Source of the DNA: a virus
IMG/VR virus record: IMGVR_UViG_3300013286_000012
Span: 12,546-76,545 of that record
Strand: one strand, 5' to 3'
DNA length: 64,000 bases
Shown: piece by piece, positions 7,735-58,788 of the stretch
Position numbering within the stretch: position 1 is the stretch's first letter
How the letters are laid out: every line of letters begins with the position of its first letter
Program-made: the position numbers and the translations under genes
Notes under the pieces: model-generated
What the model saw: only the letters and a program-made list of their open reading frames with translations
Told to the model about the DNA's origin: nothing
Databases searched by the model: none

Positions 7735-8029
7735 ACCAAAGAAGGCACTATCTGTCGGATTCGAATTGACAACAGAGCGACCCGATATCGTTGATGCACC
7801 ATGTCAATCAGTTGACCCAGAGACGTTCTTTCCAGACCCAACAGACCTTGCGTTAACTCGTGAAGCAAAGTTGCTATGCAAACAATGTAATGTAAAAATT
7901 AAAAAAGATTGTCTCACATTTGCGCTTATCAACAAGATTGGTTACGGGATATGGGGTGGACTTACTACAGATGAAAGAAGAAACTTTAAACGTAGGGAGC
8001 AGAGAAGTGAAAGTAAGAATTCGCTATGA
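7721..8029 (+). CDS. whiB: WhiB family transcription factor
   Basis: C..DPETFFP..C..C..C with GIWGGLT turn motif. Confidence 0.92.
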   Translation: MRMTRPKKALSVGFELTTERPDIVDAPCQSVDPETFFPDPTDLALTREAKLLCKQCNVKIKKDCLTFALINKIGYGIWGGLTTDERRNFKRREQRSESKNSL

Positions 8030-25586: not shown

Positions 25587-25915
25587 TATTTATCCCTCTC
25601 ATTACTAAAAATAAATTCTTGAAGCGTCATTTTTTTCTTGTACTTCTTCTTCCATTTTCTTATGAGAGCATTTCTTTCTCGATGAGAAAGTCCTCCCCAA
25701 ATACCGTGAGGCTCATCTCGACTTACTGCATCCCATAAACACTTTTCGCGTACAGGACACGGACTTTGACGAGATTCTCCAAAACAAATAGATTTTGCTT
25801 GTGTTGCAAGCACTTTGTATTGTTCTTTATCACGGGGTGGAAAAAAAATAAAAGTTGTATCGTCTTTGCCTCGGCAACGTGCTTCGTATACCCAAGCGTG
25901 GCGGGACTCATCCAT
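25586..25915 (-). CDS. whiB: WhiB family transcription factor
   Basis: W...ARC...FFP...C..CPV...C...GIWGGL. Confidence 0.92.
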   Translation of the reverse strand: MDESRHAWVYEARCRGKDDTTFIFFPPRDKEQYKVLATQAKSICFGESRQSPCPVREKCLWDAVSRDEPHGIWGGLSHRERNALIRKWKKKYKKKMTLQEFIFSNERDK

Positions 25916-46195: not shown

Positions 46196-47544
46196 TAGTT
46201 ACCCGTTTTTACATAAGGAAAACGTGCACAAGAAATGTTAACGTAAGAAACAATTGGCACCATACGTTCATCAAAAATAATGTGGTTAAGGTCTACGTTA
46301 GTAACTCTTACAAGATAACGAAGCCTGTTTCCAAGATGCAATTCAACTGCAAAACCTTGAAGCCAACCTTGGTCTGCTGTATCTCCTTTAAACCCAGAAT
46401 AAGAAATAGAGTTTAATCCAGTCAAAGTCCTAAACAAGTACTCCATATCATACATAGTTCCTTTTTCATATAACTCTGCAAGTTCTTCATTTATTGTTTT
46501 GCTATGAGCAAAAGTTCCATATGGATTGCCTACTCCCGCTTTTAATCCATTTGAATCAAGGTACCCCAAATCATTGCTTCTATTAAGCAACAAAGAAAAA
46601 CTAATGGTGCTGTTTTGAAGGGCTGAACTTGGTGCGGTTCCCGCTTCAAGTCCCGCAGCAATTCCTTCCCAGTTTTGACCTTCTGCAACTCCCCAAGTCA
46701 TTGCCACTTCTTTAGGGTTATACAAAAATTTAAACCCATATAAATTGCCATCGTACTGCGTTGTGTTGTAAGTAGAAGAATTTGCAATACTAAATGCGCT
46801 CGTTACATCCATTTGTATTACGCCTTTTGAAGCCGCAACACCCGTCCAAGCATCTAATCCTTGGCCATAATTATCTGCACCAGAAACAGACAAATTTGAA
46901 GTTCGTTGCTGTGGGCTAGGGCTATCCTGTGAGGCTCCTCCTGATAAATAAGATGTTTTAATCATTGGAGCGTTGTAGTAGTAAGTTAAAGGACTTGGAA
47001 CTTTAGCGCCACCACTTGCTGCTTCAATGCCTGCAAGCGAAGAAGTATTAATTCCAGAAGATTGTGAAGTTGTTTTAGTGATAGTTTTATTTACAATGGC
47101 TTTATGTACAATAATTTTGCTTGTTACAAGACCAGGCGGTGCCATATTTTTTTCTTTTGCAAGACGAGATGCGTTGATAGTTGCAAATGATGCTTTAGCC
47201 CTATCAAGAACAAGTTTGTTAAAGTCCAAAGCCGATTTAGAAGCATTAACTCCTGTTTGTTCTTCTGATGTAATTGTAGTACCACCAGGAGACCCTGAAA
47301 GAATGGCTGCATTTTTTCTATCGTTATACACCTTGTTTTGCGTAGCGTACGCTTGTTCAGCCTGAGTTAGAGCATCTTTGGCTCTGGCTTCTTGGTCCTT
47401 TAAAGAATTTAATTCTCTTTGATTTTTTGCTTTATTTGCTTTTTCTTTTTCTTTAACAACTTTTGCAGCAGCAGCGTTTTGCTGAACTTGAAGTTGCTCA
47501 TCGTAAGTTAATGGACGTTGGTATTGATTTGGTTTGATAGCCAT
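46195..47544 (-). CDS. tail tube initiator-like protein with N-terminal coiled coil
   Basis: FLYNP motif; position between tape measure and LysM genes. Confidence 0.65.
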   Translation of the reverse strand: MAIKPNQYQRPLTYDEQLQVQQNAAAAKVVKEKEKANKAKNQRELNSLKDQEARAKDALTQAEQAYATQNKVYNDRKNAAILSGSPGGTTITSEEQTGVNASKSALDFNKLVLDRAKASFATINASRLAKEKNMAPPGLVTSKIIVHKAIVNKTITKTTSQSSGINTSSLAGIEAASGGAKVPSPLTYYYNAPMIKTSYLSGGASQDSPSPQQRTSNLSVSGADNYGQGLDAWTGVAASKGVIQMDVTSAFSIANSSTYNTTQYDGNLYGFKFLYNPKEVAMTWGVAEGQNWEGIAAGLEAGTAPSSALQNSTISFSLLLNRSNDLGYLDSNGLKAGVGNPYGTFAHSKTINEELAELYEKGTMYDMEYLFRTLTGLNSISYSGFKGDTADQGWLQGFAVELHLGNRLRYLVRVTNVDLNHIIFDERMVPIVSYVNISCARFPYVKTGN

Positions 47545-50607: not shown

Positions 50608-51237
50608 TTAGGCTGGGAATGCTGCTGCGTTGTCGGTTAAGTTTGCTGCCCAGTTAACATCGAATCCTTCATGGACAAGAGTCATCTGTTCAACAAAGAG
50701 TGCGTTGTCACCAGCGTTGAGGTCTGAGTACGCTACAGCAGTAGGCCAGCAGTTATACACATTAAAGCGCATCGCTACATGGTCTGTCTTTGCAGGCGAG
50801 TTTTCAGCAGTTTCTCCTGCTGATGGGATTGGGTGAGAGAGAACGGCAATCTCAAGGTCACAACGGAAGTTTTCCGTACGACCACGAGTTGAGCCTCCGC
50901 CTTGAACAGTTGCAAAAAGATTACGCATCCACTCATAGTTTTGGTTGCTGCCCAAGATAACTCCACGCTGCAATGTAATTGGAGCAAATGTTGTTTGTCC
51001 TGGAATTTGATGAACTGTTGTGTTATATCCGCCTTCACGGTAAGGAATAGAGTCTGTTGTTACAGCCATTCCTGACACAGAAGTAAAACCAAAAGTTGTA
51101 GAATTTTCTAGCATTTTGGTTGCAGCACTTGGGGTAGCGCCTGTTGCGCTTGTAAGAGATTTAAACGTAACCAAAAATCTAAAGTTACGTAACGGGTCGG
51201 TAATTAATGATGACCGATTATTAATAATTGTAGGCAT
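50608..51237 (-). CDS. tail tube protein (T4 gp19-like)
   Basis: DPLRNFRF, GF..VSG, YREGG, PG.T....ITL.RG, WP....DL.A, E...L.HEG. Confidence 0.93.
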   Translation of the reverse strand: MPTIINNRSSLITDPLRNFRFLVTFKSLTSATGATPSAATKMLENSTTFGFTSVSGMAVTTDSIPYREGGYNTTVHQIPGQTTFAPITLQRGVILGSNQNYEWMRNLFATVQGGGSTRGRTENFRCDLEIAVLSHPIPSAGETAENSPAKTDHVAMRFNVYNCWPTAVAYSDLNAGDNALFVEQMTLVHEGFDVNWAANLTDNAAAFPA

Positions 51238-51257: not shown

Positions 51258-52769
51258 TTAATTCAGCGTCTTTTGGCTGAGGTCGATGACGATGAACTCT
51301 GCTGGGTATTGAAGCGCCACACCAACTTGAATGTGAACCTCTCCATTGGCAATTGTTTGTGCTGTGTTGTTTTCATTATCACATTTAACAAAGTAAGCCT
51401 GAGTAGCGGTTGCTCCACGGAGACCGCCTTGGTTACGGTACTCATTGAGAAATGAGCCTAGGCTAGTGCGAATAAGAGACCAAAGATGCTCATCATTGTT
51501 TTCAAAGATTGCAAACTCTGAAAGATTCTTAAGGTTCTTACGAATAAAGATAAGCGAACGGCGCATATTTACATACTTATTTGCTGTGCCGTCTTGCTTA
51601 AGGGTACGAGCACCCATCACTGCAAGACCAGCGCCAGGTATCTGACGAATTGGATTTACAGGAGATGTGCTTGCATTCATGGTGTCCAGTTCAGTTGATG
51701 TAAATGTTTTCTCTACAGCAACAACTCCTTGAACGGTAGTTGCAATACCTGCTGGAGCCTTAAAGACTCCACGGTTAGCATCTGTTGAAAGGTAAAGACC
51801 TACAACTGCACCAGCAGGCTCAACTTTACGCAAGGCCCCTGTTCCACGTCCTAGTGGGTCTGCAACATAAATGTTTGGATAATAAACAGCAGCATTGCTG
51901 GTGCTTCTTAAACTTCCTGCAAATGAAACAGCGTTTGCTACAGTTAGGTCTGGGTCAGTTCCAAGGACAATAAAGCCATTGTTATCTTCTGCCCAAGATG
52001 TTGCTGCATCAAATACAGCATTTGGAGTTGTTACTAATGCGTTTGCATCTGGCAAAAATACTACAAGCGGACGGTCTAATGGAGTAAAACGATTAAAGAC
52101 CGAAGAACCGCTGGCCTTGTAATTGGTGTAATCAGTAGACGCTGTTGCTGTGCCGTTTGCTCCACTGGTGAGTGGGTAAGTTGCACTGGTAATGTTTTGA
52201 CCAGCATATCCAGCAATAACAGCAACAGAAATATTTGGTGAAACAGTATTGATTACAGTTGGACCAAAATCACTTGATGTTGCATCATCAAATATAACAT
52301 TCTCATAACGTTCTAAAAGGATATCGTCAGTAATGTTATTTGCAATTCCTGATTCTTTAAAGAGAGTTAATGTGTATGTGCTTGCAACAGACCCTGCAGT
52401 AACTACTACGCGGAGGTTGTTTCCATCTGTTCCAGCATTTTTAGATGTAACAGTTACTCGTGCTGTACTACCTGAATCTACTAAAGAAATAGATGCAGCA
52501 ACAGCATTTGCGGCCAATAAGCGTTGGACATAAAGTTCACGTCCGCCATTAGCAAAGAATGCTCCAACTTGGAAAGTTGCTGGATAGGAGGCGTTATAAC
52601 CTCCAAAGTACTTGGTAAATTCATACCAAGAATTAACAAGCGTGACTATCTCTGGTCCCTGTGCAAAAGGTGCAACCACAGCGCCAGCAGCATTTGCAGT
52701 AACTCCGTTTGGAACTACTGGTGGTAGAAGGCGTTCAGTAATGTAAACACCTGGGCGGCTATATGCCAT
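51258..52769 (-). CDS. tail sheath protein
   Basis: PGVYITE, YYP, RGVFKAPAG, GARTL, Y.N.RR, FE.ND, P.EFI. Confidence 0.96.
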   Translation of the reverse strand: MAYSRPGVYITERLLPPVVPNGVTANAAGAVVAPFAQGPEIVTLVNSWYEFTKYFGGYNASYPATFQVGAFFANGGRELYVQRLLAANAVAASISLVDSGSTARVTVTSKNAGTDGNNLRVVVTAGSVASTYTLTLFKESGIANNITDDILLERYENVIFDDATSSDFGPTVINTVSPNISVAVIAGYAGQNITSATYPLTSGANGTATASTDYTNYKASGSSVFNRFTPLDRPLVVFLPDANALVTTPNAVFDAATSWAEDNNGFIVLGTDPDLTVANAVSFAGSLRSTSNAAVYYPNIYVADPLGRGTGALRKVEPAGAVVGLYLSTDANRGVFKAPAGIATTVQGVVAVEKTFTSTELDTMNASTSPVNPIRQIPGAGLAVMGARTLKQDGTANKYVNMRRSLIFIRKNLKNLSEFAIFENNDEHLWSLIRTSLGSFLNEYRNQGGLRGATATQAYFVKCDNENNTAQTIANGEVHIQVGVALQYPAEFIVIDLSQKTLN

Positions 52770-53463: not shown

Positions 53464-53780
53464 TTGTGCCCCCTCAAATATTTAGACGTTTGAGACAATA
53501 AAAACTTCTCTGATGTTGCTGTGCGGTTTCCAAAACGACGGATTGCAGCAGTTGGGCGTTGAGACGTGCTCCCGTATTCAAGGTCCATAACTCTATTACG
53601 GTGGTCTTCATGGGAGTGGACTGTAAAAGCGCCATCATTATGGCGTACAGACAGGTGGCGGACAACGTCATCAGGCCAGCCAGATTTACGAGCCTCAATA
53701 CGAAGATGGGCTGACATAAAGCGAGCAGTGTCTTTAGTGGCTTTAGCCAATGAGTCCTTTACTTGTAAAAGATAACTCAC
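53460..53780 (-). CDS. neck/tail completion protein (HK97 gp10-like)
   Basis: LEYG....P...IR.F motif. Confidence 0.55.
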   Translation of the reverse strand: MSYLLQVKDSLAKATKDTARFMSAHLRIEARKSGWPDDVVRHLSVRHNDGAFTVHSHEDHRNRVMDLEYGSTSQRPTAAIRRFGNRTATSEKFLLSQTSKYLRGHK

Positions 53781-53971
53781 TTCTTTTTCTTCGCCTTCGA
53801 CACAGTTCTTACTCCTCCTGCAATATAAGCAGCAGTAGAGGCTAAGATTAAACCTGCGACGATTGGGCGTTTTTCGGTAGGGCGGAATCCAAACACGCCC
53901 TTAATAAATTCTTCACGCTCGTGCTGATTGTTCATTTCAGCAACCTGTTCGTACCATGGCTTCCAGGCCAT
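53777..53971 (-). CDS. small membrane-anchored protein
   Basis: AGGGG RBS; hydrophobic helix then KKKK. Confidence 0.55.
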   Translation of the reverse strand: MAWKPWYEQVAEMNNQHEREEFIKGVFGFRPTEKRPIVAGLILASTAAYIAGGVRTVSKAKKKK

Positions 53972-54051
53972 AAGTAATCCCCTTTTCATCGCAAGCAGTG
54001 GGTCTGCACGAGGTACGCATGCACTCTCGATACCGCAATGATAAAGAAGAA

Positions 54052-54069
54052 AGGGCCCTTTCGGGCCCT
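54052..54069 (-). terminator. terminator closing the basic-peptide operon
   Basis: AGGGCCC-4 nt loop-GGGCCCT followed by T-rich tract on - strand. Confidence 0.75.
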
Positions 54070-54075
54070 AACTAC

Positions 54076-54294
54076 TTACTTCTTTTTAATCTTTTTGGCT
54101 AACGCCTTATCCATCTTCTCGTCCATTGCACGAGATGGCTTCTTTTTATCCATGGCCTTATCAGCCTTGGCAAACTTCTTCTTCTGCGCTGAGTCCATGC
54201 CCTTCATAACCTTAGCATCTTGCTTCTTATCTGCTTTCTTGCAAGCGCCATTACATCCTGGCTTTGAACAACCACATCCACATGATTTACACAT
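54076..54294 (-). CDS. Cys-head/Lys-tail peptide (MCKSCGCGC..., 72 aa)
   Basis: ORF track; TAATG coupling. Confidence 0.75.
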   Translation of the reverse strand: MCKSCGCGCSKPGCNGACKKADKKQDAKVMKGMDSAQKKKFAKADKAMDKKKPSRAMDEKMDKALAKKIKKK

Positions 54295-54437
54295 TACATT
54301 CCCTTCTTTCTATTCATCATAGATTTCTTTGATATTGCAATTGCTGCTTGCTGTGCTTTCTTAGCAGGTGCTTTTTTAGCAGGTGCCTTCTTCATTGCCT
54401 TCTTCATATTGCCCATGCAACCACAGGTAGCGCACAT
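54294..54437 (-). CDS. Cys-head/Lys-tail peptide (MCATCGCMG...KKAPAKKAPAKK, 47 aa), not in ORF track
   Basis: translated by hand; TAATG coupling at both ends; histone H1-like PAKK repeats. Confidence 0.75.
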   Translation of the reverse strand: MCATCGCMGNMKKAMKKAPAKKAPAKKAQQAAIAISKKSMMNRKKGM

Positions 54438-54604
54438 TACTTTTTCTTCTTTCTTAGGGCTGCAAAATCAGCCGCATCAATCTTGCTCTTATCTCCAGCA
54501 ACGGCAGCAATCTTCTTCTGCTTTGGAGATAACGTCTTAGCGCCCTTCTTGCAAGCGCCTTTACAATTTGGCTTTGAACAACCACACCCACATGACTTAC
54601 ACAT
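54437..54604 (-). CDS. Cys-head/Lys-tail peptide (MCKSCGCGCSKPNC..., 55 aa), not in ORF track
   Basis: translated by hand; TAGATG junction. Confidence 0.75.
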   Translation of the reverse strand: MCKSCGCGCSKPNCKGACKKGAKTLSPKQKKIAAVAGDKSKIDAADFAALRKKKK

Positions 54605-54727
54605 CTACTTGCTCTCTTTCTTCTTAGTTGGCTTTTTCTTGGTTTTAGCAAATTTTTTATTTGCCGCAGCAAGAGTCTTCATTCCGTGCTTATCTTTAGG
54701 CTTTCCGCATCCGCAGGTAGCGCACAT
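54605..54727 (-). CDS. Cys-head/Lys-tail peptide (MCATCGCGKPKDKHG..., 40 aa), not in ORF track
   Basis: AGGAG RBS; translated by hand. Confidence 0.75.
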   Translation of the reverse strand: MCATCGCGKPKDKHGMKTLAAANKKFAKTKKKPTKKKESK

Positions 54728-54736
54728 GTCCTTCTC

Positions 54737-54973
54737 CTATCGGTAGTTAGCGGTTTTTTTTGCAATCTTTTTAGGTTGCTCAACAAACTGCTTACCTTTT
54801 TTATTACCCTTAGCCTTAGCCTTGTTGGTCGCAGCCTTTTCTGAAGGAGATAAAGCATCCCATGCTTTGTCAGGTAAGTAACGCTTTTTTCCTTTTGATT
54901 CTTTGCCATCGGAAGTGCGCCATTTTTCATCGCCCCAATTTTTTAAAGATTGCTGTGGTTTTGCAAGAGCCAT
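54737..54973 (-). CDS. basic small protein (DUF5872-like C-terminal half)
   Basis: QQSLK.W..EKWRT, RYLP.KAW..LS..EK.ATN. Confidence 0.7.
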   Translation of the reverse strand: MALAKPQQSLKNWGDEKWRTSDGKESKGKKRYLPDKAWDALSPSEKAATNKAKAKGNKKGKQFVEQPKKIAKKTANYR

Positions 54974-55173
54974 TAGTTCTTGTATCCTCCGCCTGATTTC
55001 TTATATTCAGAAGCAAGAAGTTGGGCTTTGCGTGCTGACCATTCTCCAGGGTCTCCACCTTTAGACCCCGCCTTAATCTTTTTAAATAAGGACGCCCTCA
55101 TTCCAGGCTTGGTGTAATTACCAGCCTCATTAACCTTTGACTTTGGCTTTGGCTTTGCTGACTTTTTTTCCAC
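54973..55173 (-). CDS. basic small protein (DUF5872-like N-terminal half)
   Basis: YTKP, KGG.PG.WSARKAQ....EY...GGGY. Confidence 0.7.
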   Translation of the reverse strand: MEKKSAKPKPKSKVNEAGNYTKPGMRASLFKKIKAGSKGGDPGEWSARKAQLLASEYKKSGGGYKN

Positions 55174-55279
55174 TTGTTACTCCTTTACCTGCTGGTACAC
55201 AATTAGGAACTTTCTTTCCATTCTTCATCTTCATGCCTTTTTGTACATATCCATCCCAACACGGTCCTTGCGATGCCAT
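55130..55279 (-). CDS. basic peptide with CW.GY...VPNCV motif (49 aa), not in ORF track
   Basis: TAATG coupling; MASQGPCWDGYVQKGMKMKNGKKVPNCVP... Confidence 0.7.
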   Translation of the reverse strand: MASQGPCWDGYVQKGMKMKNGKKVPNCVPAGKGVTSGKKVSKAKAKVKG

Positions 55280-55584
55280 TACTTTTTTCTCTGATTCTTC
55301 TTGTGCATTGCTGCTGCCTTCTTCTTAGCATCGGCCTTTGATGTTGCACCCCATGCCTGAAGAGATAATAATAATCTTGTTGGTTCGCCGTTGGGCTTAT
55401 GTTCTGGTCCTGGATTTCCGCCCATACGAGCAAGGAAAGATGCACGACGAGGATTGTTACCAGACTTAACTGGTGGCTTTAAATTAGAACCAGGGTTAGC
55501 CTTTTCATAAGACTTGCGACCTGCTTCATTAAGTCCACCCTTGGGATTCTTACCAGATTTCTTTTGCCATGCTTCACTAGCCAT
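55279..55584 (-). CDS. basic small protein (DUF6321-like)
   Basis: AWQ.K.GKNP.GGLN..GR, RR.SF.ARM.G. Confidence 0.7.
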   Translation of the reverse strand: MASEAWQKKSGKNPKGGLNEAGRKSYEKANPGSNLKPPVKSGNNPRRASFLARMGGNPGPEHKPNGEPTRLLLSLQAWGATSKADAKKKAAAMHKKNQRKK

Positions 55585-55765
55585 TTTTCTTATGCCAATC
55601 TTTTGTGGCCTTTACTCCTTGAGCAATAGTCTTAGAGCCAGCCTTCTTGGTTAAATTAATTTTGTCGTACTTGCCCTTGTTGCCAGCGTGGTCGACAATG
55701 ACGTCGCCACTCTTGTTCTTTTTGATGGTGTGCTTTTCACCAGCAACCTTGATTGTTTTAGCCAT
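55577..55765 (-). CDS. basic small protein
   Basis: Lys-rich, overlapping start/stop. Confidence 0.65.
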   Translation of the reverse strand: MAKTIKVAGEKHTIKKNKSGDVIVDHAGNKGKYDKINLTKKAGSKTIAQGVKATKDWHKKNG

Positions 55766-55946
55766 TCTTTTTTTTCTTCTTTGCCATGCCGCTCTCGCTC
55801 ATAGCAATTGCAACTGCTTGTTTTTTTGATTTAACAATTGGGCCTTTACCAGGACCAGGTCTTCCTGAGTGCAACTTACCCGCTTTGTATTCTTTCATAA
55901 CAATTTCAACTTTGCCTTTAGAAACTTTCTTCGGAGTTGTAGCCAT
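55758..55946 (-). CDS. basic small protein (DUF6496-like)
   Basis: VM.E.K.G.LHSG...V.S.KQA.AIAMSE. Confidence 0.7.
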   Translation of the reverse strand: MATTPKKVSKGKVEIVMKEYKAGKLHSGRPGPGKGPIVKSKKQAVAIAMSESGMAKKKKKNG

Positions 55947-56056
55947 TACTCGCCTTCTTCCTCTTCATCCTCAAAATCATCAAGGTCTTCCAAGTCTACA
56001 CTGTCAAAATCTTCTTCAAATAGTGAAGGGTCAATTTCTAATTCAAAGTCTTCCAC
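55946..56056 (-). CDS. ultra-acidic peptide (36 aa, 21 D/E, no K/R), not in ORF track
   Basis: AGGAG RBS + GTG; MEDFELEIDPSLFEEDFDSVDLEDLDDFEDEEEEGE; TAATG-coupled to next gene. Confidence 0.75.
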   Translation of the reverse strand: MEDFELEIDPSLFEEDFDSVDLEDLDDFEDEEEEGE

Positions 56057-56065
56057 AATAATCTC

Positions 56066-56599
56066 CTAGTTAGAATAGGACTGAAACTGAGGGTCGTTAA
56101 CCATTTCTTCGGCGTTGACTTGGTTGCAGTCTATGGTGACTACAGAATAGCGGTCCTTGTAACGTCCACGGGGTAAAACACGCGCAGGAACAAATACTTC
56201 TCCTTGGAATACGACGCGGTCTTTAATGTGGAGGTTTGGATTTGCAATCATTTCTGGAAGAAGACGGTTTAAATCGTCTACGGCAATTACTAGGCGCAAG
56301 GTATCTGTGGTGTAGTAGCCGCGCTCATTCATGACGTTGGTTCCACGAAGTTGTTGAGCCATAATTACAGGCAAATCAAATGGGTTATTCCAACGGCGTC
56401 CCTTGCCCGTTTCTTGGTTAGAGACATCGTAGATGGGGTCCACCCAATTGGCATAATGCGAAGCCAAGACATTGGGGTCCCAAGTCCACCAAGATACGGT
56501 GGTTCCTACAGGGTCACGAAGTTCGTCAACAATGCCTTCGTCCATAGAGGCAGACTCAAAATCAATTTTAAATCTACCTTGTACTTTGTTTCCACGCAT
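56066..56599 (-). CDS. probable head-closure/neck protein
   Basis: beta-rich, DR.VF.G.VF; position upstream of tail completion genes. Confidence 0.5.
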   Translation of the reverse strand: MRGNKVQGRFKIDFESASMDEGIVDELRDPVGTTVSWWTWDPNVLASHYANWVDPIYDVSNQETGKGRRWNNPFDLPVIMAQQLRGTNVMNERGYYTTDTLRLVIAVDDLNRLLPEMIANPNLHIKDRVVFQGEVFVPARVLPRGRYKDRYSVVTIDCNQVNAEEMVNDPQFQSYSN

Positions 56600-56614: not shown

Positions 56615-57355
56615 TCATTTATAGGTTTTATCTTGTCTAAACATAGTTTTGTATCTATCAAAAAATTTAGTTTGAAGTTTAGTAGTGATATTTTGTTGTG
56701 CTTTTAACTCTGTAGCGTTTCCTATTTGCAATTCCCAATCGTTTCTTTTAAACGGAATGACTTGGGCTATAGGAGTTCCTTTTGGAATAAGTCCTTCAAA
56801 ATTAGGGTCGTTAATTACAAAGGGAAAATTAACGGGCGCAAAATATTCATCGGTGTCTACAATTCCAGGAAGAATGGTAAACGGCGATTCTCGATGCATG
56901 GGTTGAACAAAAAAGGCTGAGTAGCCTTTAGGGGTTCGAATTGACCATGGGTTAACCCACTTAGCATAAGGGTGTTCATTGCGTGCGGGGTGCTCTGGGG
57001 CTTGCTCAATAGGGTGAAAACCTACAAGTCCAAAATTAGACCATTCAAAATGTTGCATTTTTTTGTTTGGTAAATCTGTAACAACCTCACCAGTTTCAGC
57101 ATCTTTTGGTTCATATTCTTGTATTGAAACATACACATCAGCAGGAAGTGTAATGATGTATCCAGCAACAATGGCATCAAAAACTGGCATACAGCGTTTA
57201 ATAGTTGCTTGAGTTCCTGCATTACCATTTGGTTTTTTAACTCCTCCAACATATGAGTCAGTATTTTTATACCATTCAGGAACAAACTTTAAAGAAGGTA
57301 GTGGTTGTTCTAAATCATCAAAGCCACTTGTGTTTGTAAAAACAATAGTATTCAT
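56615..57355 (-). CDS. dUTPase-like fold protein (DUF6065-like), paralog 1
   Basis: PEWYK, KRCMP, PW.I.TP.GYS, GIVDTD, IP.GTP..Q.IPFKR. Confidence 0.7.
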   Translation of the reverse strand: MNTIVFTNTSGFDDLEQPLPSLKFVPEWYKNTDSYVGGVKKPNGNAGTQATIKRCMPVFDAIVAGYIITLPADVYVSIQEYEPKDAETGEVVTDLPNKKMQHFEWSNFGLVGFHPIEQAPEHPARNEHPYAKWVNPWSIRTPKGYSAFFVQPMHRESPFTILPGIVDTDEYFAPVNFPFVINDPNFEGLIPKGTPIAQVIPFKRNDWELQIGNATELKAQQNITTKLQTKFFDRYKTMFRQDKTYK

Positions 57356-57376: not shown

Positions 57377-58093
57377 TTAATTGTAAGTTTTTTTACGCCA
57401 AAAATTTAATTTGTACCAATTATTTGCAGTAGATCTAGAAAAAAAAGTATTGTAATTTACTTCTTCAAATAATAAAGGATCTTCTTTAGAATTCCAATTT
57501 TCTCTTTTAAAAGGAATAATTTGTGCAAAAGGAGTGCCTTTTGGAATAATTCCATTAAAAGATTTATTAAAAAATACTGGTACATTTCCTTTTTGTAAAA
57601 TTACACGTCCATCTACTATTGCGCTTAATGTTGTAAAAGGTAAATCATGACGATTTAAAGGATGAGTAATTAAAGCACTGTATCCTTCTGGTATTTCATA
57701 GTAAACGTGAGTTACCCAAACAAAATGTTGAGAAGAAAATCCTTCGGGTATAGGAAGAAGATTATTAAGTTCTAAATCAATACGAATAGAAACTGGCACA
57801 TATCCTAACGTTTCATTCCATGTAATAACAGTATCTATGTCTGTTAAGTTATCAACTGCAATATCGCACGGAGTAGTTAAAACATATCCTGTAGCAAAAG
57901 ATTCTAAAAATGGTACACACGATTTAAAAGATTTTACATAAGGAATTCTATTTGGATTATGATCTTTTGAATATTTTGATGTATTTTTATACCAATCAGG
58001 AATAACCATTTTTGCTGAAATAAAAGGATTTTTATAAAAAATTAAATCTGTAAAGTATCTAATATTAGTTTTTTTATTTTTTTTAAATTTCAT
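57377..58093 (-). CDS. dUTPase-like fold protein, paralog 2
   Basis: PDWYK, K.C.PF, P.GYS, IP.GTP.AQIIPFKR. Confidence 0.7.
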   Translation of the reverse strand: MKFKKNKKTNIRYFTDLIFYKNPFISAKMVIPDWYKNTSKYSKDHNPNRIPYVKSFKSCVPFLESFATGYVLTTPCDIAVDNLTDIDTVITWNETLGYVPVSIRIDLELNNLLPIPEGFSSQHFVWVTHVYYEIPEGYSALITHPLNRHDLPFTTLSAIVDGRVILQKGNVPVFFNKSFNGIIPKGTPFAQIIPFKRENWNSKEDPLLFEEVNYNTFFSRSTANNWYKLNFWRKKTYN

Positions 58094-58788
58094 TTATATT
58101 CTTTCTTACTCCACCAAAATTTTTTATAACGATCAAAAAATACTCGGTTAAACTTACTTATATCTATAGCATATTTTTTTTGTTCTTTTTTTCCTCCTAA
58201 AGAAGAAACCCATAATTCTCTTTTAAAGGGAATAATTTGTAAAAATGGAGTTCCAGCAGGAATCATTCCTTCAAAATTTGGATCACGTAATTTTAAAAAC
58301 ATATTAAATGGAAGAGAGTAGGTATCGGTATCAACGATTCCACTAGCGCAAGTAATTGGTCCAGGTTCGTGATGTTGAGGTTCCATAACCATAATAGACC
58401 AACCATTTGGAGTTTTAATTGACCAAGGTATTACAATTCTTACAGCATAGTTAATGTCTCTTGAATAAGGATGGTTTTGAAACTGATCTAATATTTGAAA
58501 TTGTATTGCATCATTGGTTGCCCATTGAAAATAAGGGCCTTCAGGAGTTTGACGAATATAAATATCATATGGAGTTTCCATAATGTAACCAGCAGTCATC
58601 ATATCCCACAAAGGCATACACCTTTTCACAGTAGCCATGGGTGTGCCGTCTATTGTTGGTGCTTTTTTACCACTAGGATCTAAATAAGATTTTGCATTTT
58701 TATACCATTGAGGTATGTATTCAATGGCGGGTTTAGGTTTTTCTAAAACTCCTTTAGGATTTTGAATGTCCGTAAAAATAATTTTCAT
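58090..58788 (-). CDS. dUTPase-like fold protein, paralog 3
   Basis: PQWYK, KRCMP, GIVDTD, IPAGTP..QIIPFKR. Confidence 0.7.
   Translation of the reverse strand: MKIIFTDIQNPKGVLEKPKPAIEYIPQWYKNAKSYLDPSGKKAPTIDGTPMATVKRCMPLWDMMTAGYIMETPYDIYIRQTPEGPYFQWATNDAIQFQILDQFQNHPYSRDINYAVRIVIPWSIKTPNGWSIMVMEPQHHEPGPITCASGIVDTDTYSLPFNMFLKLRDPNFEGMIPAGTPFLQIIPFKRELWVSSLGGKKEQKKYAIDISKFNRVFFDRYKKFWWSKKEYK

Follow-up and report, generated by a model that had tools for sequence, protein, structure and literature searches.

What does a phage do with eleven very small genes, one for a strongly acidic peptide (p01) and ten for lysine-rich proteins (p02 to p11), set between its neck gene and its tail genes? The question is raised by a locus in the IMG/VR virus record IMGVR_UViG_3300013286_000012, which we analysed over a stretch of 64,000 nucleotides, referred to below as the window. 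The small genes of this cassette proved to be real, coupled to each other and conserved as a class among related phages, and two of them, p04 and p05, are stand-alone versions of modules of larger phage proteins. The reading that we tentatively favour is that the cassette encodes, as separate genes, polycations located inside the head and associated with DNA. Because this reading rests on the homology of two of the ten basic families, on position and on composition, we give it somewhat less than an even chance.

Layout and conservation of the cassette

An earlier sequence-only reading had described a block on the minus strand in which a 36-residue acidic open reading frame (ORF) is followed by ten coupled lysine-rich ORFs and closed by a terminator of its own. 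This layout was borne out together with its composition and coupling, and a clean hairpin was seen at the end of the block (Table 1). Each of the proteins p02 to p11 contains 12 to 24 lysine and arginine residues, with lysine in large excess over arginine, and carries a net charge of +11 to +17, which sums to +133 for the set. Within the cassette, TAATG is the form of five junctions, an 8-nucleotide (nt) overlap at two, and a 44-nt overlap, an abutting TAGATG and a 9-nt gap at one each; the junction sequences include TAATG, ATGGCTAA/ATGGCTAG, TAGATG and short overlaps. The start of p01 is separated by a further 9 nt from the TAG stop of the upstream gene of 177 amino acids (aa), here called neck177. 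Small lysine-rich ORFs are confined to this block within the window, except for one of 30 aa, and no other small ORF there is of the p01 kind. The best explanation of the block is that it forms the 3' end of a late head/neck operon.

With neck177 as the anchor, 57 related loci on viral contigs were compared, their anchor identity ranging from 40 to 85%. Wherever a locus was long enough for a judgement, small basic genes formed a chain between neck177 and the tail genes. The gene families making up the chain varied between loci in a mix-and-match fashion, even among close relatives; the p11 tail was among the most widely kept of them, and the p11-tail, p03 and p09-type families were found in most near and distant relatives alike. 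By a crude count, based on a greedy set of non-overlapping ORFs in loci that are related to each other, 285 of the 361 small ORFs in 42 distinct versions of the interval had a net charge of +7 or more, 28 had one of -7 or less and 48 were of other charge, and the number of basic genes per block had a median of 7 and a range of 3-11. All 42 distinct blocks held small basic genes in the same slot, in agreement with the earlier treatment of these genes as a unit. Since the basic class was kept despite the turnover of families, a shared role that depends on composition is argued for over random cargo. In the Streptomyces phages with the nearest sheath genes, such as GiJojo, tailspike genes were found at the corresponding position and no basic cassette.

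Modules shared with larger phage proteins

Evidence of what such proteins may do came from p04 and p05, whose PHROG matches lie inside, or at the C-terminus of, phage proteins of far greater length. The p04 sequence matched DUF6321 (PF19846) with a score of 89.4 bits, the cut-off being 28.5, and the genome search gave 90 bits. This domain was found in 487 phage records, mostly of cyanophages, and in T4-like cyanophages it is the C-terminus of a lysine-rich protein of 430-530 aa annotated as 'T4-GC0119 structural protein' (T4-GC119). In BLASTP, p04 was 52-61% identical to the C-termini of four such proteins (S-SM1 SSM1_115, Syn9 gp114, S-P4 and S-B43). One or two CWxGY knuckles stand immediately before the DUF6321 module in T4-GC119 sequences, and the p05 family was matched to the T4-GC119 alignment by hhalign with 97% probability (E 5e-11) and to Syn9 gp114 by BLASTP (E 2e-10). 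The linkers ahead of the modules in these sequences share a (V/T)(T/Q)NE-(A/S/G) pattern, a putative cleavage site after the glutamate.

In cyanophages the T4-GC119 gene sits between neck/small-terminase genes and large terminase/sheath genes. Like the cassette, T4-GC119 is lysine-rich, late-expressed and placed among neck, terminase and sheath genes, with its knuckles and C-terminal DUF6321 matching p05 and p04. Where T4-GC119 is one polypeptide of about 430-530 aa, the window has the two modules, in reverse order, as individual genes of 49 and 101 aa, each with a start and a stop codon of its own. Counterparts of the other eight basic families and of p01 were not detectable in T4-GC119, the function of which is unknown as well. 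SSM1_115 is the T4-GC119 gene of S-SM1, and the DUF6321 module is present in it. The protein is listed as 'Structural protein' and was detected in S-SM1 virions with 13 peptides, and S-PM2 lacks it (Sullivan et al. 2010, Table S8, PMC3037559).

The knuckle was also found in two other proteins of head gene regions. In the 474-aa 'head maturation protease' of HSTV-1, a protein that works inside the procapsid, it follows an XkdF-type protease domain and precedes a long acidic scaffold-like tail; in the Actinomycetia phage DSL-LC01 it lies in a 347-aa protein encoded two genes downstream of the portal gene. HSTV-1 gene 13 (L075:2302-3723) thus carries the knuckle of bacterial phages, and this mini-domain is common to viruses of different host domains. 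Two further candidate links were dropped. The CWxGY module of the Sf-CH8 'cytidyltransferase' had pointed to the virion-detected T4-GC190, and S-SM1 and Syn9 have the module only in T4-GC119; a SLxxW/SDGK likeness of p07 to T4-GC119 reached an hhalign E of only 0.07.

In podovirus MEP402, the genes immediately upstream of the large terminase gene are homologues of p07, p06 and p04 together with one for a 37-aa poly-lysine peptide. Unrelated phages that infect SAR11, SAR116, Roseobacter, Methylophilales and cyanobacteria likewise carry homologues of cassette families, alone or in different combinations. Beside p04, p06 and p07 homologues in unrelated marine phages we noted tiny Lys/Met-rich peptides of 37-50 aa with 'MMRGGM'-like repeats (L061:6960-7112, L059:5722-5835 and L064:4294-4413), which resemble the ...KKGM C-terminal end of p10.

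The sequence-only reading had pictured p02 to p11 as protamine- or histone-like core proteins. As to a core protein, it gained ground indirectly from p04 and p05 as stand-alone modules of a cyanophage protein found in virions; as to a protamine-like one, it did not, p03 and p04 being predicted to be small folded basic domains rather than protamine-like chains. The AlphaFold2 (AF2) model of p03 had a predicted local distance difference test (pLDDT) value of 88.6 and a predicted template modelling (pTM) score of 0.72, with four strands and a helix. Compared with the PDB it gave no significant match, Foldseek returning only PUR repeats weakly (E about 0.7, TM 0.37-0.44), and a wide VIA fold search reached a best Z of 4.4, with no fold assignable. 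The p04 model (pLDDT 78) contained four helices and gave no match in the fold search. No H1 globular domain was found by Pfam in the set, and the chains are not arginine-rich.

According to the reading that we favour, a pool of mini-domain families common to aquatic phages would supply proteins of very small size and strongly basic charge, which would be made late and in bulk and enclosed in the capsid with the DNA. There they would offset part of the negative charge of the DNA, and they would possibly enter the cell with it. The cassette would be the split-gene equivalent of the modular lysine-rich virion protein T4-GC119 and a functional analogue of the internal proteins of T4. The usual view is that tailed phages pack their DNA with the help of polyamines and with hardly any protein or none; T4 is the textbook exception. 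IPI, IPII and IPIII, which are internal proteins of T4, are small, basic and late, and about 360 copies of each are packed in the head and ejected with the DNA (PMC9026906). They are like p02-p11 in being small and basic, but there is no sequence homology, the T4 proteins are of 8-20 kDa versus 4-11 kDa for the ten here, and their cleavable L/I-x-E propeptide was not seen in p02-p11.

Several results speak for this reading. Strongly basic ORFs predominate in the slot, are tightly coupled to the upstream structural gene and end at a terminator. The p05 module recurs in the HSTV-1 protease and in the portal-adjacent protein, and homologues of p04, p06 and p07 stand together next to the large terminase gene of MEP402. 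The acidic p01 stays with the cassette despite insertions and is under purifying selection.

Other results weigh against it. Only two of the ten families (p04 and p05) are tied to a virion protein, and hhalign of p02, p03, p06-p09 and p11 against T4-GC119 gave nothing significant, the best being p07. Syn9 has T4-GC119, but Table S8 does not list its detection in Syn9 virions (PMC3037559), and virion preparations can be contaminated by highly basic proteins, which may adhere to DNA or to particles. The stand-alone small proteins, as well as this phage, are known from genes alone. On inspection, the T4-type capsid-targeting propeptide (L/I-x-E, a T4-specific rule) was absent from the first 20 residues of p02-p11. 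Furthermore, p01 was missing from every locus with an anchor identity of 61% or less, where basic cassettes are kept, and no acidic gene was found adjacent to the homologous basic genes in MEP402, CRP-9, HMO-2011 and pelagiphage EXVC031P. The slot also accommodates fibre-like genes (145-733 aa) and genes for HNH endonucleases, which is what one would expect of a plasticity region.

Such a region might collect mobile small genes with unrelated jobs in the infected cell, for instance in host take-over, anti-defence or regulation, and their basic character would then reflect nucleic-acid-related targets. We regard this as possible but on the doubtful side. It agrees with the insertions, with the mixing of gene content between close relatives and with the homologues that unrelated phages carry alone or in different combinations. 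T4-GC119 itself lies in the hypervariable gp16-gp17 island, and the text of Sullivan et al. (2010, PMC3037559) calls it hypothetical and part of a mobile cassette. A plasticity region of this kind accords less well with the persistence of small basic genes down to 40% identity of the flanking gene, with a share of about 80% strongly basic small ORFs, with the coupling of the genes to a late structural operon and with the virion or procapsid association of the fused relatives. The fibre-like genes in the slot (L016:6622-7848, L020:6607-8103, L041:6604-8805 and L008:1938-2375) share the N-terminus P-L-x-K-P-x-x-G-Q-x-x-W ... L-N-x-A-L-D-Y-L-D, and some have collagen-like G-x-Q repeats.

A second alternative is that the basic proteins bind nucleic acid in the infected cell and are not packaged, so as to compact or coat replicated phage DNA ahead of packaging, to shut down the host nucleoid or to chaperone late RNA. 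Composition would suit this role, as would the terminase genes nearby in MEP402 and in cyanomyoviruses. The PAKK repeats that had been reported for one member were confirmed in p10, which contains KKAPAKKAPAKK and two PAKK(A) repeats. These recall the actinobacterial nucleoid proteins HupB, Rv3852 and HBHA, and the phage appears to infect actinobacteria. Unlike those proteins, p10 has only two repeats, matches the NCBIfam Rv3852 family weakly (E 0.02) and has no HU or other core domain. Considering also the virion or procapsid location of the fused relatives and the place of the cassette in a structural operon, whereas host shut-off genes are normally early, we think an unpackaged role unlikely.

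The acidic peptide p01

The p01 ORF is certainly a genuine gene, a lineage-specific micro-protein, because 24 variants share a conserved motif, the ratio of nonsynonymous to synonymous polymorphism (pN/pS) is 0.36 and 91 database clusters were found. Its content of acidic residues, the lack of lysine and arginine, the AGGAG ribosome-binding site and the TAATG coupling to p02 were all as the sequence-only reading had given them. Among the 34 loci with an anchor at least 71% identical, 33 had p01. Its 24 distinct sequences are 34-52 aa long, and all length changes among them preserve the frame; a Shine-Dalgarno (SD) sequence was found in every one and the TAATG junction in nearly all. The N-terminal motif [DE]F-E-x-E-[IL]-D-P-x-L-F-E was conserved. 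Within F-E-x-E-x-D-x-x-L-F, the residues F, E, E and L were invariant and D and F nearly so, and the motif is followed by a variable acidic tail with hydrophobic and aromatic residues spaced along it. Variability at the three codon positions was 34/27/77, highest at the third, which together with the mean pN/pS points to purifying selection. The 91 clusters, obtained by profile search, are of 33-46 aa, come from metagenomes only and lie on contigs of up to about 100 kb. No family match to p01 was found in Pfam, PHROGs or NCBIfam.

Among the basic genes, p01 is tied most tightly to p02. Inserted genes (145-498 aa) fall between neck177 and p01, p01 and p02 are never split, and p02 occurs only where p01 occurs; the same split of presence and absence for both genes could reflect a single gain. 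The linkage of the acidic peptide to basic genes, which the sequence-only reading had proposed to look for in related contigs, was recovered in the closer loci and not in distant relatives or unrelated phages.

Most plausibly, p01 would serve p02, or the whole set, as a counter-ion or an escort. Its restricted distribution and the charge imbalance, -21 for p01 versus +133 for the ten basic proteins, weigh against a general chaperone for the whole set. Complex prediction for p01 and p02, both entered as alignments, gave a score of 0.01, which counts neither for nor against an interaction. A more ambitious version would make the cassette a self-contained polyanion/polycation packaging aid. Metal-capped and knuckle-type lysine-rich mini-proteins would coat the genome in the capsid and condense it, p01 would keep them, p02 foremost, soluble and off nucleic acid until loading, and cyanophages would deliver the same modules as one processed polyprotein. 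Such an arrangement, which we consider distinctly unlikely, would be the phage counterpart of histone/protamine-chaperone logic.

Acidic disordered partners buffer polycations of this kind before their deposition, and the residual core peptides of T4 are acidic. The T4 head also holds small leftover peptides, the residual core peptides of gp22/gp67 (PMC9026906). Adenovirus core proteins VII, V and mu, and histone H1 or protamine with prothymosin-alpha or nucleoplasmin, are like the cassette by composition only, as small polycations that accompany DNA and have acidic partners. Unlike these systems, the proteins here are lysine- rather than arginine-rich, at least two are predicted to be folded, an H1 globular domain and a nucleoplasmin core are absent and the opposing charges are far from balanced.

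The position of p01 suggested a further alternative. neck177 and p01 share a reading frame and are separated by one TAG and three codons (E-I-I; window 56054-56068, minus strand). The same layout was found in 11 related viral-contig loci, wherever p01 directly follows neck177, and in several metagenome loci, and a metagenome scan of the junction returned TAG-containing loci only. p01 might thus belong functionally to neck177, as a detachable C-terminal tail, separate and possibly also made by TAG read-through, or as a DNA-mimic-like plug, and would then be no chaperone. In three database proteins neck177 does continue directly into the acidic peptide, and the residue at the TAG position is Q, which may be a real CAG variant or a gene-calling artefact under a TAG=Gln code. 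Recoding of TAG by a suppressor tRNA was rejected: no suppressor tRNA was found in the contig and TAG is an ordinary stop, used by 16 of 105 ORFs. The shared frame, which had a 1-in-3 chance of arising, probably reflects a single inherited state. Moreover, insertions part p01 from neck177 and never from p02, and many insertion loci have p01 in another frame than its upstream neighbour, with its own SD sequence and start retained. A functional union with neck177 is therefore, in our judgement, very unlikely. In about 20 HNH endonucleases (Pfam HNH and HNH_5; 160-256 aa; e.g. P0211, P0213, P0217 and P0224), the C-terminus continues stop-free into the acidic peptide, indicating that homing-type genes have repeatedly inserted immediately upstream of p01 and become joined to its reading frame.

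Cysteine heads, other members and surrounding genes

The last four proteins of the cassette, p08 to p11, all begin with M-C-x-x-C-G-C (Cys2, Cys5 and Cys7) as HypB does, and p09 and p11 have three additional cysteines. The NCBIfam profile HypB_prefix_1 matched p08 (E 5e-4, 21.3 bits) and p10 (E 5e-3, 18.1 bits), in both cases below the cut-off of 30, and no GTPase or other further domain was found in the 40-72 aa of p08-p11. The affinity of the HypB motif for Ni(II) is picomolar, the ligands being the N-terminal amine and the thiolate groups of Cys2, Cys5 and Cys7 (PMC12284835). The cysteine positions are those of E. coli HypB, and from this likeness the heads of p08-p11 probably bind a metal ion; unlike HypB, the phage proteins lack the GTPase domain and stand in a context unrelated to hydrogenase maturation.

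One could thus suppose that p08-p11 primarily handle metal, by capture or delivery of Ni, Zn or Cu, or that the set consists of disruptin-type cationic lysis helpers. The exact agreement with the HypB site suits the former, and small basic genes a few genes away from a lysozyme/endolysin gene in HMO-2011 and CRP-9 suit the latter. Metal enzymes and transporters are absent nearby, however, and the heads are separable from the tails: the head occurs alone in 26-31-aa ORFs of three loci (L006, L043 and L045), the p09 tail occurs without it in three others (L003, L007 and L012) and so do versions of p11 in L002 and L008, the tails persisting. The peptides are also extremely hydrophilic and not amphipathic, and the cassette in the window is not beside lysis genes. 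Both roles appear highly improbable.

Likenesses to DUF6496, DUF6321 and DUF5872 had been proposed for single members. Pfam upheld the first for p02 (PF20106; 40.2 bits, above the gathering cut-off of 24) and the second for p04, and detected nothing else in the cassette; neither p06 nor p07 had a match at E<=0.1, DUF5872 (PF19197) included. As a lead only, a language-model atlas placed p06 beside clusters auto-named DUF5872. An alignment of p02 with 16 homologues had 19 invariant columns. Both phrog_17747 (p06) and phrog_14910 (p07) are families of unknown function. Homologues of p06 were found in 17 cultured marine phage records, all annotated as hypothetical, and adjoin p07 homologues in MEP402 and CRP-9; those of p07 include MEP402 gp48 and HMO-2011 gp59. 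The p11 family comprised 101 database proteins, from metagenomes only. Sequence comparison of p02, p04, p06 and p07 with PDB chains gave no match, and nothing relevant was found in the literature on the three DUF names.

The individual families are thus already catalogued as unknowns, and for the cassette, the acidic micro-protein and HypB-type heads on peptides of a phage structural operon no description was found in the literature. Throughout a lineage of abundant freshwater actinophages, 3-11 tiny genes for polycations are retained where the head operon ends, and modules of the cassette recur in head proteins of cyanophages, pelagiphages, roseophages and a haloarchaeal virus, which points to a widespread, overlooked class of capsid-interior proteins. 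Such proteins would escape standard gene callers as well as tryptic proteomics. Several homologues belong to cultured marine phages, and cultured carriers of stand-alone homologues include MEP402 (gp48-51), CRP-9 (gp66-69), HMO-2011 (gp59, gp62 and gp63) and EXVC031P. If the reading is true, it bears on charge neutralisation of DNA, on the physics of ejection and on the first proteins entering the host cell, and the HypB-type heads would add a metal-dependent element not yet described among phage structural genes.

Table 1. Features of the cassette and of its surroundings in the window
Feature	Position	Strand	Description	Remark
neck177	56066..56599	-	177-aa upstream gene	TAG stop, then in frame three codons and p01
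p01	55946..56056	-	polyacidic, 36 aa, 21 D/E, 0 K/R	GTG start, AGGAG 7 nt upstream
p02	55758..55946	-	62 aa, DUF6496, net +14	TAATG-coupled to p01
p03	55577..55765	-	62 aa, net +11, predicted folded mini-domain	AF2 model
p04	55279..55584	-	101 aa, DUF6321, net +17	stand-alone copy of T4-GC119 C-terminal module
p05	55130..55279	-	49 aa, net +11, two-Cys knuckle P-C-W-D-G-Y ... P-N-C-V-P	PHROG, hhalign
p06	54973..55173	-	66 aa, net +12, phrog_17747 (possibly DUF5872-like)	PHROG E 6e-34
p07	54737..54973	-	78 aa, net +14, phrog_14910	PHROG E 4e-38
p08	54605..54727	-	40 aa, net +12, M-C-A-T-C-G-C N-terminus and Lys-rich tail	HypB-type head
p09	54437..54604	-	55 aa, net +13, six-Cys head M-C-K-S-C-G-C-G-C and Lys-rich tail	translation
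p10	54294..54437	-	47 aa, net +13, M-C-A-T-C-G-C head, two PAKK(A) repeats	translation
p11	54076..54294	-	72 aa, net +16, six-Cys head and K/D/M-rich tail	translation
Intrinsic terminator	54052..54069	-	7-bp stem (6 GC pairs), GAAA loop, T-rich tail	closes the head/neck-cassette transcript
70-aa gene	53777-53989	-	hydrophobic stretch, poly-Lys end	conserved, directly past the terminator
Tail sheath gene	51258-52769
Tail tube gene	50608-51237		T4 gp19-like
Small Lys-rich ORF	47409-47501		30 aa	outside the cassette
WhiB-family gene	7796-7984	+		above Pfam cut-off
WhiB-family gene	25664-25894	-		above Pfam cut-off
Tandem paralogue	56615-57355	-	232-246 aa (range of the three)	no Pfam match
Tandem paralogue	57377-58093	-
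Tandem paralogue	58090-58788	-

The window is part of a 76.5-kb IMG/VR contig with an estimated completeness of 76%. The evidence points to an uncultured freshwater actinophage, a WhiB-encoding myovirus of about 100 kb. The tail sheath gene and the tube gene identify it as a myovirus, and the two WhiB-family genes mark the contig as that of an actinophage. By sheath sequence, the closest cultured relatives were Streptomyces phages, e.g. GiJojo and BRock, at 45-48% identity. The full stretch was present in one sequencing run only, a freshwater metagenome that is probably its source, no RNA data set being listed for the stretch, and the GC content is 41.8%; taken together with the WhiB genes and the sheath kinship, this indicates a freshwater actinobacterial phage.

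The neck and tail-completion labels that had been given to the neighbouring genes were partly backed. Immediately upstream of the sheath gene lies a 220-aa gene homologous to the GiJojo tail terminator (33% identity, E 1e-22). neck177, which is probably a head-closure or head-tail joining protein, matched GiJojo gp75, an unnamed gene of the head-tail connector region (25% identity, E 3e-12). No Pfam or PHROG match was found for neck177, and the leads to head-closure families in the language-model atlas all scored below 0.9. Between the capsid-region genes and neck177 lie three tandem paralogues, two of which match phrog_7084, a family of unknown function; the third was not scanned. On the other side of the cassette, the conserved 70-aa gene directly past the terminator is the first gene of the tail transcript in most relatives.

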